The position numbers and the translations under genes are program-made. Shown here one piece after another: positions 61,264 through 63,299 of a stretch of 64,000 nt of DNA. Each line of letters starts with the position of its first letter. Position 1 is the first letter of the stretch. The notes under the pieces are model-generated. The model saw only the letters and a list, made by a program, of their open reading frames with translations, did not search any database and was not told the origin of the DNA. This DNA comes from Candidatus Krumholzibacteriia bacterium (lineage in GTDB: Bacteria; Krumholzibacteriota; Krumholzibacteriia; WVZY01; JAKEHA01). Location of the stretch: NCBI GenBank assembly GCA_029865265.1, contig JAOUHG010000002.1, positions 98,357-162,356 of the forward strand, in the 5' to 3' direction.

Positions 61264-62361
61264 TTATCGCCCGTTTGTGACGGGCGTGGCAACCGGCGCC
61301 AGAAACGGATTGGACAGATCCGGATTGAACAGGAAGTCCGGGTCGGTCAGGGTTTGCAGGAAGACGATCAGCGTGTCGATCTCCCCCGGCCTCATCGGTG
61401 GGCGGGTGAGCCGCGCGCGAATGAGCGGGTCAACGTCGTCCCCATCGTGGAACCCCATGTTGTAGTGGGCGATCACTTCCTCCAGGGTGGCAAAGCGGCC
61501 GTCGTGCATGTAGGGCGACGACACCTCGATGTTGCGCAGTGTGGCGGACTTGAACTTGCCGATGTCGGCGGGATCACCGGTGACGTCGTAACGGCCGTCG
61601 TCGGCCACGATGGAATCCAGCCCCGTGTTGTGGAAAGTGCTGGTGGCAAAGAACAACTCGTCGTGACAATGGAAACAGTCCCCGCGCTCGGTGCGAAAGA
61701 TGTCGTACCCCATCTGCTCGACCGGCGTGAACACGTCCTCGCCGCGGCGCACACGGTCATACTTGGAATTCGCGGAGATGAACGTCCGCTCGAACTGGGC
61801 GATGGCCTTCACCACCCGGTCCTGGCTGATGCGGCTGTCGCCGAAGGCGGCACAGAACAGGCCGGGGTACTCGGCATGGTTCTCGAGGCGCGCAATGGCG
61901 TCGGGCCAGGGCAGGTCCATCTCGATCGGATTGGGGACCGGCTCGCGCGCCTGGCCCTCCAGGCCGGCCGCGCGCCCGTCCCAGAACATCTCGGATACCC
62001 ACGCCGGATTGACGATGGTGGGCGCGTGACGGCTGCCAAATACGCCGTGAATCCCCTCGCTGAAACGGCGGGTGTCGCCAAACGCGTTCTGCTGGATGTG
62101 GCACTGCGCGCAGGCCTGACTGCTGTCGCCGGAAAGGATGGGATCGTAGAAGAGCCGCCGCCCCAGCGCGACCCCTTCTACCGTCAGCGGGTTGTCCTTC
62201 GGATTGGGCAGTTCGGGAAAGTTCGCCGGCAGATCGATGACCAGCGGCGTGGCCGGAGGGCACTCGGATTCGACCGGGGGGGTGACCCCGTCGTCGCCGC
62301 CGGTACACGATGCAATGACCAGCATCGCGCACGCCCAGATCATCAGTCGTCTATTCGTCAT
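61264..62361 (-). CDS. Di-heme cytochrome c peroxidase lipoprotein (MauG/MbnH-like)
   Basis: MTNRRLMIWACAMLVIASCTGG (lipobox). Two heme motifs CAQCH and CFHCH with CCP-family spacing. ...FDKYL-type region ANSKYDRVRRGE. Confidence 0.8.
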   Translation of the reverse strand: MTNRRLMIWACAMLVIASCTGGDDGVTPPVESECPPATPLVIDLPANFPELPNPKDNPLTVEGVALGRRLFYDPILSGDSSQACAQCHIQQNAFGDTRRFSEGIHGVFGSRHAPTIVNPAWVSEMFWDGRAAGLEGQAREPVPNPIEMDLPWPDAIARLENHAEYPGLFCAAFGDSRISQDRVVKAIAQFERTFISANSKYDRVRRGEDVFTPVEQMGYDIFRTERGDCFHCHDELFFATSTFHNTGLDSIVADDGRYDVTGDPADIGKFKSATLRNIEVSSPYMHDGRFATLEEVIAHYNMGFHDGDDVDPLIRARLTRPPMRPGEIDTLIVFLQTLTDPDFLFNPDLSNPFLAPVATPVTNGR

Positions 62362-62435
62362 GCTCCTGATTACTCCCGGAGCCGCGCTGCGGAGGCGTTT
62401 GAACCGAAAGCAACAATCCCGAAGGTGCCCTTGCG

Positions 62436-63299
62436 CTAGTGATGCCCGCCTTGCGCTTCCATAGATGCGGAGAAGCAGAAGGGGCCATTGCTCATGAGCT
62501 TGTCCTGCGCTTCGAGGTTCCCCATGATCATGGCTGGGTAGTCGGTGAAATCATACTGGGTATCGTTGCCGTCGGCCGGCGCATGATCCGTATACCAGCC
62601 GTTGAGTTCCACGTGCAGCGTCACTTCGCCGGAACCGCCCTCGTGTATGTGGGTGGGGGTGACCGGCAGGTCTACGCTGAAGTGGTGGTGATGCGGCGTC
62701 GCGTCCACAATGCCCGGAAACATGGGGTTGGTCCCGTCCAGCTGGCGCGCGCCGGTGTGCGTGGTATACCCGGCCGTCGCGCCGCCGGGCGTCTGTTCGT
62801 AGTTCCCCTCGAGCTGCATGTAGTGATAGCCCAGGTTCGGACCCAGACCGGTGGGCCAGGCCATCTCGGTGTGGAATTTGGTCATTGAGATGTACTTGTC
62901 GCGCACATTGCGCGTCTCGTCGAGTCCGAAGGTAAACGTAACCCGGTTCCAGTCCGCGTGCGGCACGCCACCATCGAAGTGGATGGTCTGGCTCGACGGG
63001 TCCGCGATGTTGAAGTAGTGAAGGTCCTTCAGCTTCACGTTGTTGCCCTGTTCGGAGTGGAGACGGATGTCCGTAAGCACGAAGCGCAGCACCTTGACGC
63101 TGTACTTGCGCCCTGCGGGGTTGTCGTAGGTGAGCGAGTTGAGCACCAGCGGCTGGCCGCCCACGGTGAAATCGAAAAATACGTCCACCGAGATCGGCTC
63201 TTCAGTGGCAACCGGGTCGTCTTCGCCGCAACCGGCCAGCAACAGGCTGAGCAGGGTGGCGAGGACGGCGGCGAGGCGAAGGATTCCGGTGCGGCTCAT
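62436..63299 (-). CDS. MbnP-like periplasmic lipoprotein (putative copper-binding partner of the di-heme peroxidase)
   Basis: MSRTGILRLAAVLATLLSLLLAGCGEDD (lipobox). ~287 aa, His-rich (PHHHHF, HIHEGG). Immediately upstream of and co-oriented with the MauG/MbnH-like CCP, which is the mbnP-mbnH arrangement. Confidence 0.45.
   Translation of the reverse strand: MSRTGILRLAAVLATLLSLLLAGCGEDDPVATEEPISVDVFFDFTVGGQPLVLNSLTYDNPAGRKYSVKVLRFVLTDIRLHSEQGNNVKLKDLHYFNIADPSSQTIHFDGGVPHADWNRVTFTFGLDETRNVRDKYISMTKFHTEMAWPTGLGPNLGYHYMQLEGNYEQTPGGATAGYTTHTGARQLDGTNPMFPGIVDATPHHHHFSVDLPVTPTHIHEGGSGEVTLHVELNGWYTDHAPADGNDTQYDFTDYPAMIMGNLEAQDKLMSNGPFCFSASMEAQGGHH

Follow-up and report, generated by a model that had tools for sequence, protein, structure and literature searches.

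A divergent MbnP-like lipoprotein gene directly followed by a di-haem MauG-like peroxidase gene, outside a methanobactin operon, in a Krumholzibacteriia genome

The window, i.e., the whole stretch of 64,000 nucleotides (nt) that was analysed, comes from a Candidatus Krumholzibacteriia bacterium (assembly GCA_029865265.1, contig JAOUHG010000002.1, positions 98,357 to 162,356 of the forward strand). Two adjacent minus-strand genes near its end, related to mbnP and mbnH, are the subject of this study. The mbnP-like gene (62436..63299) is an open reading frame (ORF) for a 287-residue lipoprotein of the MbnP family, which belongs to a divergent, non-WxW subfamily. The mbnH-like gene (61264..62361) follows downstream after a gap of 74 nt and is an ORF for a 365-residue lipoprotein, a di-haem peroxidase of MauG type. 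The original prediction had described a lipoprotein of about 287 residues followed by a co-oriented di-haem peroxidase lipoprotein, and the two ORFs, their lipoboxes and two CXXCH motifs are indeed found. The GC content at third and second codon positions (GC3 and GC2) is 0.83 and 0.41 for the mbnP-like gene, 0.84 and 0.46 for the mbnH-like gene, in a sequence of 66% GC; both ORFs are thus considered genuine genes, since their third-position GC bias is that of the genes of this genome.

The lipobox of the mbnP-like protein is LLAG-C24, with the codon of the lipidated Cys24 at 63228..63230 (minus strand). This Cys is present in 141/141 representatives of the subfamily, each taken from a different 50%-identity cluster; the conservation of all residues of the mbnP-like protein given below was measured over the same representatives. 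The lipobox of the mbnH-like protein is IAS-C19. In both proteins there are acidic residues just after the lipidated Cys, i.e., C-GEDD in the mbnP-like protein (63228..63216, minus) and C-TGGDD in the peroxidase (62307..62290, minus), and also in the lipoprotein encoded upstream of the pair (C-GDD). Asp or Glu is found at position +3 after the lipidated Cys in 62% of the MbnP representatives, and 85 of them have at least two acidic residues at positions +1 to +5. Such an acidic stretch resembles the surface-export signal of Bacteroidota lipoproteins. It may hint at a surface location; it must be noted that acidic linkers are common in lipoproteins.

An AAGGAG ribosome-binding site (63314..63309, minus) precedes the ATG of the mbnP-like gene by 9 nt. 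A candidate promoter lies further upstream (63372..63400, minus), with TTGTAC at 63400..63395, a 17-nt spacer and TATAAT at 63377..63372. The TATAAT element had been proposed as a promoter beforehand; it is present, and a TTGT..-17-TATA(A/C)T arrangement also stands upstream of mbnP in three related loci (L001, L002 and L004, whose MbnP is 97%, 65% and 58% identical to the window protein, respectively), but the site is not called by a generic consensus promoter scan, its -35 element fitting at only 3 of 6 positions. The recurring -35/-10 arrangement represents a modest phylogenetic footprint. The spacer contains a hairpin (63393..63378), which might terminate the upstream gene, with TATAAT as its T-rich tail and not a promoter element. 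The -35/-10 spacing is kept, however, in genomes where no hairpin is evident, and for this reason the candidate promoter is favoured.

In a Pfam scan, the mbnP-like protein matches PF20243 (MbnP) with 85.6 bits for a cutoff of 27 (expectation value (E) 5.3e-24, profile positions 4-180 of 189). PF20243 is the sole significant Pfam family for this protein and is present in 86/87 of its homologues. The assignments to the «Riean_0653 family» and to Mfa1 fimbrial proteins were rejected as weak, N-terminal matches below cutoff. Searches of the PDB with the single sequence, or with a profile of its homologue alignment, gave no match; the link to the structure 7L6G (MbnP of Methylosinus trichosporium OB3b) was obtained through hhalign and Foldseek only. 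For hhalign, a canonical MbnP (C. basilensis scuba_4) was taken from the supplement of PMC3621798 and used to retrieve the 7L6G sequence, and a canonical alignment was then built. The comparison gave a probability of 97.1% (E 7.5e-11, 190 columns) and was reproduced with a deeper profile of 141 sequences. The AlphaFold2 (AF2) model of the mbnP-like protein has a mean predicted local distance difference test score (pLDDT) of 92.1 and a predicted template modelling score (pTM) of 0.83. When this model was compared with the PDB by Foldseek, the six chains of 7L6G were the sole significant matches (E 5e-8 to 3e-7, probability 1.0), the next-best match having an E of 0.02. The identity to 7L6G is about 13-16%. 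The fold and the family are thus common to the mbnP-like protein and canonical MbnP, with a large divergence. The lack of a match to MbnP models, or a match to a family other than MbnP, had been named beforehand as what would speak against this assignment; the upstream lipoprotein matches PF20243 and no other family significantly.

In MbnP, copper is held by one His, one Met, a ligand from the solvent and Kyn174, a residue that MbnH generates from Trp174, which belongs to a conserved WxW motif (PMC11951088). The M146-A147-W148 codons (62856..62864, minus) align by hhalign with the M-x-W of the canonical M-x-W-x-W: M146, a candidate Met ligand, is aligned to the conserved Met and is 89% conserved, and W148, the candidate kynurenine precursor, is aligned to the first Trp of WxW and is 100% conserved. 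H181 (62757..62759, minus), a candidate His ligand of copper, is aligned to the invariant His of canonical VH(V/L)GS and is 99% conserved. M259 (62523..62525, minus), a second candidate Met ligand, is 98% conserved; only when hhalign was run globally or at low stringency does it pair with the invariant Met of the canonical GCMS. In close Methylosinus homologues M-x-W-x-W is localized at 172-176 or 173-177, and a signal peptide of 25 residues is implied by the point where the 7L6G chain begins. This numbering, together with the signal peptide, would put the first Trp at 174, which supports W148 as the candidate kynurenine precursor.

Three further residues are nearly invariant in the subfamily. 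H159 (99%) and M161 (94%) belong to a subfamily-specific GYHYM motif (H159-Y160-M161 codons at 62817..62825, minus) and are aligned to non-conserved canonical positions (R/V); W235 (98%) has no conserved canonical counterpart. The mbnP-like protein had also been described as His-rich. It does contain 17 His (5.9%), among them the HHHH run at 203-206 and those of GGHH at the C-terminus, but these runs are lineage-specific: HHHH, GGHH, C275, H81 and H219 are limited to the close clade, while the residues kept family-wide are M146, W148, H159, M161, H181, W235 and M259. The HHHH run and the GGHH tail were accordingly rejected as core features of the metal site, because they are not conserved across the family.

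The mbnH-like protein matches PF03150 (CCP_MauG) with 181 bits (E 2e-53) in the Pfam scan. Its best NCBIfam model is TIGR04039 (MbnH, 246.4 bits), followed by MauG (TIGR03791, 185.8 bits). In the PDB its best match by sequence is 6E1C (E 2.8e-57, 197.9 bits, residues 32-359), and the next matches are a bacterial cytochrome c peroxidase (bCCP, 147 bits) and MauG (125 bits). The PDB title of 6E1C reads «Di-heme enzyme»; we take this entry to be the MbnH of M. trichosporium. The two haem motifs, C84-A-Q-C-H88 (62098..62112, minus) and C229-F-H-C-H233 (61663..61677, minus), are invariant in 18/18 loci. The inter-haem Trp, W127 (codon at 61981..61983, minus), is part of the FWDGRA motif, is invariant and aligns with Trp93 of MauG. 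Y300 (codon at 61462..61464, minus), the candidate Tyr axial ligand of the second haem, aligns with Tyr294 of MauG and with a Tyr of 6E1C; positions 93 and 294 of the MauG chain are the inter-haem Trp and the Tyr axial ligand of that enzyme. The H-Y-N residues around Y300 are invariant in 17/17 complete orthologues. Two additional Cys, C34 and C170, are found in the same 17/17 orthologues, whereas 6E1C has Ala at both positions; a disulfide specific to the clade may link them.

The residue at the second haem bears on another explanation, in which the enzyme is an ordinary cytochrome c peroxidase (CCP) that scavenges H2O2 and the MbnP-like lipoprotein beside it is passive or unrelated, e.g., an unmodified structural or electron-donor partner. 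MbnH can detoxify H2O2 without MbnP, FWDGRA is common to bCCPs and MauG, and M302 is aligned to a Met of the Nitrosomonas europaea bCCP, all of which would fit such an enzyme. Position 302, however, varies among orthologues (M, G, H, L, R or Q), while Tyr300 is invariant, which points to His-Tyr ligation of MauG type. His-Tyr versus His-Met ligation at the second haem divides the MauG-type enzymes from canonical peroxidases (PMC11892367). The closest relatives of the enzyme by sequence are moreover MbnH and not bCCPs (198 vs. at most 147 bits). Since Tyr300 is invariant, position 302 is variable and His-Tyr ligation is the criterion for the MauG type, the mbnH-like enzyme is, as judged from its residues, of MauG/MbnH type with a predicted His-Tyr second haem. 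An ordinary peroxidase beside an unrelated lipoprotein is accordingly regarded as improbable.

The position of the two genes with respect to each other leads in the same direction. The di-haem gene is directly downstream of mbnP in 18/18 loci, 16 of which are non-redundant, so the mbnP-mbnH gene order and the co-occurrence proposed at the outset are borne out in 16/16 non-redundant loci. The order holds in a 1-Mb contig with 97% identity (L001) and in relatives down to 48% identity. This adjacency, strict across phyla, is not expected of a peroxidase with an unrelated neighbour. A scan of reference genomes gave 13 loci, mostly from metagenome-assembled genomes (MAGs) of Krumholzibacteriia and Latescibacterota, with one Weeksellaceae locus at 28% identity. 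An exhaustive profile search for the subfamily gave 3,131 cluster representatives (clusters defined at 50% identity) at E <= 1e-3, of which 229 at E <= 1e-30. Most of these representatives are unnamed or labelled «hypothetical» or «MbnP family protein», the latter being also the label given by NCBI to the Krumholzibacteria orthologues. The named relatives are mostly MAGs of Krumholzibacteriia and Latescibacterota, with single cases in Bacteroidota and Gemmatimonadota.

Within the Krumholzibacteriia/Latescibacterota clade the pair is part of a syntenic block, i.e., a propeller-like lipoprotein, MbnP, the CCP, sometimes deoC, a secreted DUF4440 protein, a cytoplasmic AhpC/TSA-type redoxin and LytB. 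The pairing could be nothing else than local synteny in a compact co-directional array, the two genes having no functional coupling; indeed the pair lies inside a long, dense series of minus-strand genes with unrelated functions (deoC, DUF4440, redoxin, lytB), which is itself syntenic across the clade. The surroundings nevertheless change while the MbnP-CCP pair never separates. The block is lost in L005 (48% identity), where a Phenol_MetA_deg barrel stands upstream and a PP2C gene downstream, and in L018, where gyrB and mdh stand upstream; deoC is present in some loci only. Moreover, the same pairing defines the canonical family (PMC3621798). Simple synteny is thus very improbable, and the pair alone is taken as the conserved unit because the wider block dissolves in L005 and L018.

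Three neighbours downstream of the pair, all on the minus strand, were considered in this respect. deoC (60591..61256) stands between the pair and the next two genes only in the window, L001, L006 and L007. The secreted DUF4440/SnoaL-like protein (60078..60572) and the CxxC AhpC/TSA-redoxin (59384..59989), which has a thioredoxin fold and no signal peptide, are encoded after the pair in every Krumholzibacteriia/Latescibacterota locus and are absent in L005 and L018. AhpC_TSA genes occur in copper operons that also hold MbnPH-like genes (PMC9426467). A thioredoxin-fold AhpC/TSA gene downstream would also suit an ordinary peroxidase; against this, its product carries no signal peptide and the gene is missing from the distant loci L005 and L018. 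The DUF4440 protein and the redoxin were rejected as parts of the system and are considered as neighbours, because of (i) their absence in L005 and L018; (ii) the insertion of deoC in some genomes; (iii) the lack of a signal peptide in the redoxin.

On the other side of the pair, the lipoprotein encoded directly upstream of mbnP (63416..64000, minus; full length at 8905..9885 of L001) has 326 residues, an LSAC-GDD lipobox, repeated «VGDGGxI...W» propeller-like motifs and no Pfam match. By tblastn it has a match upstream of MbnP in 12/14 non-redundant Krumholzibacteriia/Latescibacterota loci and none in L005 or L018. DUF2269 and CBS genes precede it in L001-L004. In L005 the gene directly upstream of mbnP encodes the outer-membrane Phenol_MetA_deg beta-barrel (4972..5892), which may act as a channel in place of a TonB-dependent receptor. 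The leader of mbnP in that locus (~5920..5960) contains a near-perfect palindrome, TATACAG-TAGAT-CTGTATA.

No mbnA-, mbnB- or mbnC-like gene, TonB-dependent receptor (MbnT or other), MATE pump or dedicated copper gene was found among the scanned ORFs of the 64-kb window (the region 35.5-39.3 kb and a few short ORFs lying outside the scan). The same holds for Mbn-operon and copper genes in the 10 kb on either side of the pair in L001, which extend beyond the window end, and for Mbn-operon genes in the surroundings of L002-L005 and L018; in such scans a short mbnA peptide gene could escape detection. The pair had been predicted to stand alone, with neither mbnA/B/C nor a TonB transporter nearby, and this agrees with the scanned window ORFs and the L001 flanks. 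The sole metal-transport gene found in the window is that of FeoB, a ferrous iron transporter (45888..48125, minus), about 13 kb from the pair.

The comparison with known systems begins with the MbnP/MbnH of M. trichosporium OB3b (7L6G and 6E1C). The order of the genes (P then H) and the Pfam families are the same, and these two proteins are the best structural and sequence matches, respectively. The Met-x-Trp, a His and a second Met of MbnP align with the window protein, and the MauG-type Tyr and the inter-haem Trp of MbnH are found in the window enzyme. On the contrary, the window MbnP-like protein lacks the second Trp of WxW, the four Cys and the His of the NHS motif, and has H159, M161 and W235 in addition; both window proteins are lipoproteins, and neither a methanobactin operon nor an adjoining TonB-dependent transporter accompanies them.

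The MbnP gene directly beside a di-haem MauG-like gene is the adjacency that characterizes the «metallo-mystery pair» (GenProp0940), and it is the arrangement found here. The P/H pair is conserved far beyond methanobactin producers, standalone pairs having been known since 2013 (PMC3621798). Those described as isolated adjoin MbnT-like TonB-dependent transporters with MbnI/R (PMC3621798), and a Bordetella study reports MbnPH-like genes in the copper operons of other bacteria, with DUF2946, ScoC, PCuAC, CopC and YcnI (PMC9426467). The window pair resembles these isolated pairs in having no mbnABC; it differs in that theirs stand beside transporter or copper genes, whereas the window and Weeksellaceae pairs stand beside housekeeping genes.

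MauG likewise has two haems, one of them with His-Tyr ligation, and a Trp between them, and it oxidises Trp residues of its partner. Its Tyr294, Trp93, Gln103, Pro107 and Glu113 are identical to the aligned residues of the window enzyme. It differs in its substrate protein (pre-methylamine dehydrogenase) and in its product (a two-Trp quinone cofactor), and it scores lower than MbnH against the window enzyme (186 vs. 246 bits in NCBIfam, 125 vs. 198 bits in the PDB).

Taken with the conserved residues, these likenesses lead to the proposal that the two genes form a methanobactin-independent module of MbnP/MbnH type, in which the enzyme would convert W148 to kynurenine by oxidation, thereby completing a copper site. 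This is considered probable, and it would proceed as follows: (i) both proteins would be exported and lipid-anchored; (ii) the MauG-type enzyme would react with H2O2 to reach a high-valent state and would oxidise W148 of its neighbour to kynurenine; (iii) this kynurenine would form the copper site together with H181 and either M146 or M259, and H159 and M161 might add to it; (iv) outside the cytoplasm, the mature lipoprotein would bind copper in order to acquire it, buffer it or hand it on. The same chemistry is reported for the MbnP and MbnH of M. trichosporium (PMC11951088). The analysis itself shows the family, the fold, the conserved residues, the MauG-type hallmarks and the strict adjacency of the genes; the conversion of the Trp, the metal and its ligands, and the role in the cell are proposed by homology with that system.

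Several observations weigh against this proposal. The mbnP-like protein obtains only 13.2 bits from the NCBIfam model TIGR04052 (MbnP_like_WxW), whose cutoff is 140; among 42 clade members the best E for this model is only 7.7e-6, and distant members of the subfamily score 15-20 bits. The AF2 model reaches template modelling scores (TM-scores) of no more than 0.42-0.48 against 7L6G. In place of the second Trp of WxW stands T150, and this position is E, D, A or T across the representatives. The invariant His of the canonical NHS motif aligns with V132, which is not conserved as His; if that His is a real canonical ligand, the site is rebuilt here. The four-Cys motif is absent, the sole Cys being C24 of the lipobox and C275, which is Val in most of the family, while canonical MbnPs have five invariant Cys and a nearly invariant one. 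The placing of the first WxW Trp at residue 174 is deduced from the numbering of homologues. For the enzyme, the 246.4 bits obtained from TIGR04039 are below the curated cutoff of 362.85, a value which would equally suit an ordinary peroxidase. Finally, no copper-related gene is found nearby to back copper as the metal.

The identity expected for the mbnP-like protein thus stands for the broad MbnP family and not for the characterised WxW/four-Cys subfamily, and none of the NCBIfam models covers its own subfamily. As regards the modified Trp and the His and Met ligands, on whose conservation the original prediction was to be judged, the candidate residues W148, H181, M259 and M146 are conserved, while the second Trp of WxW and the NHS His are not kept.

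These differences leave room for the same families with another chemistry or another metal: the enzyme would still modify the lipoprotein, but the product would be a remodelled site (H159, M161, W235 and M259) that would hold another metal or another Trp-derived cofactor with a catalytic instead of a binding role. The conservation of H159, M161 and W235 equals that of the residues shared with canonical MbnP, where these three have no conserved counterpart; the missing NHS His, second Trp and four Cys and the low TM-scores can be read in this sense too. Besides, the product of MauG, which is the relative of the enzyme that has been studied best, is a quinone cofactor made from two Trp (PMC11951088). 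Nevertheless, the residues aligned with conserved canonical positions (Met, Trp and His) are of the exact types reported for the copper site of MbnP, and nothing found points to another metal or another substrate. His and Met are typical ligands of copper, which also counts against another metal. A different chemistry or metal is the main alternative and is judged unlikely.

Other proteins with a kynurenine-containing copper site must also be mentioned. MopE/SACCP of Methylococcus capsulatus and CorA/CorB of Methylomicrobium album are, like the proposed module, kynurenine-containing copper proteins encoded beside a di-haem peroxidase gene. They are surface-associated, and the acidic residues after the lipidated Cys in the window proteins hint at a similar location. 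MopE/CorA-type proteins have no marked sequence similarity to MbnP and have other folds (PMC11951088, PMC3621798), and their copper sites use two His instead of His and Met (PMC11951088). It is conceivable that the mbnP-like protein represents a distinct class of MbnP-like lipoproteins, in which a copper site would be rebuilt on the modified W148 with H159, M161, H181 and M259, the protein, and perhaps its peroxidase too, being exported to the surface by means of the acidic residues after the lipidated Cys. It would then capture copper or another metal at the cell surface independently of a chalkophore and of a transporter, in the manner of MopE/SACCP on an MbnP fold. This extension is speculative and judged rather unlikely.

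Some features of the window lie apart from the pair. Three tandem giant paralogues of 1703, 1646 and 1715 residues (17653..33070, minus) contain Peptidase_C25 (gingipain-like) and C25 Ig domains, FG-GAP propeller repeats and a C-terminal FlgD_ig domain. After them comes a 604-residue protein (33139..34953) with a C-terminal match to matrixin (M10). A 587-residue FG-GAP protein (56370..58133, minus) ends with the FlgD_ig domain that is also found in the three giant C25 proteins; in this lineage, such a shared C-terminus may serve for sorting or anchoring. On the plus strand, two ORFs of 826 and 827 residues (3353..5833 and 6079..8562) have a strongly coding composition (GC3 of 0.88-0.90) and no Pfam match; next to them lie genes for a c554/c7-like multihaem cytochrome (1746..3167) and for a pair of histidine kinase and sigma-54 regulator (8704..11372).

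The pair is a divergent but fairly ordinary member of its family. It refines an annotation and does not constitute a new kind of system, since standalone pairs have been known since 2013 and orthologues are already named by NCBI. What differs is the subfamily and its setting: no WxW and no four-Cys motif, additional invariant His, Met and Trp, lipoprotein anchoring and housekeeping neighbours. No characterisation of this mbnP-like subfamily was found in the literature searched. Even for methanotrophs, what MbnP/MbnH do in the cell is described as unsettled (PMC9601215, PMC11951088), and the locus shows the pair in a lineage without methanobactin genes, an adjoining transporter or a copper operon. 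Because a large subfamily shares only the Met-x-Trp, one His and one Met with the characterised protein, these would be the residues that matter for the shared chemistry. Moreover, as it has only three Trp, the mbnP-like protein could be a simple model for the installation of kynurenine.

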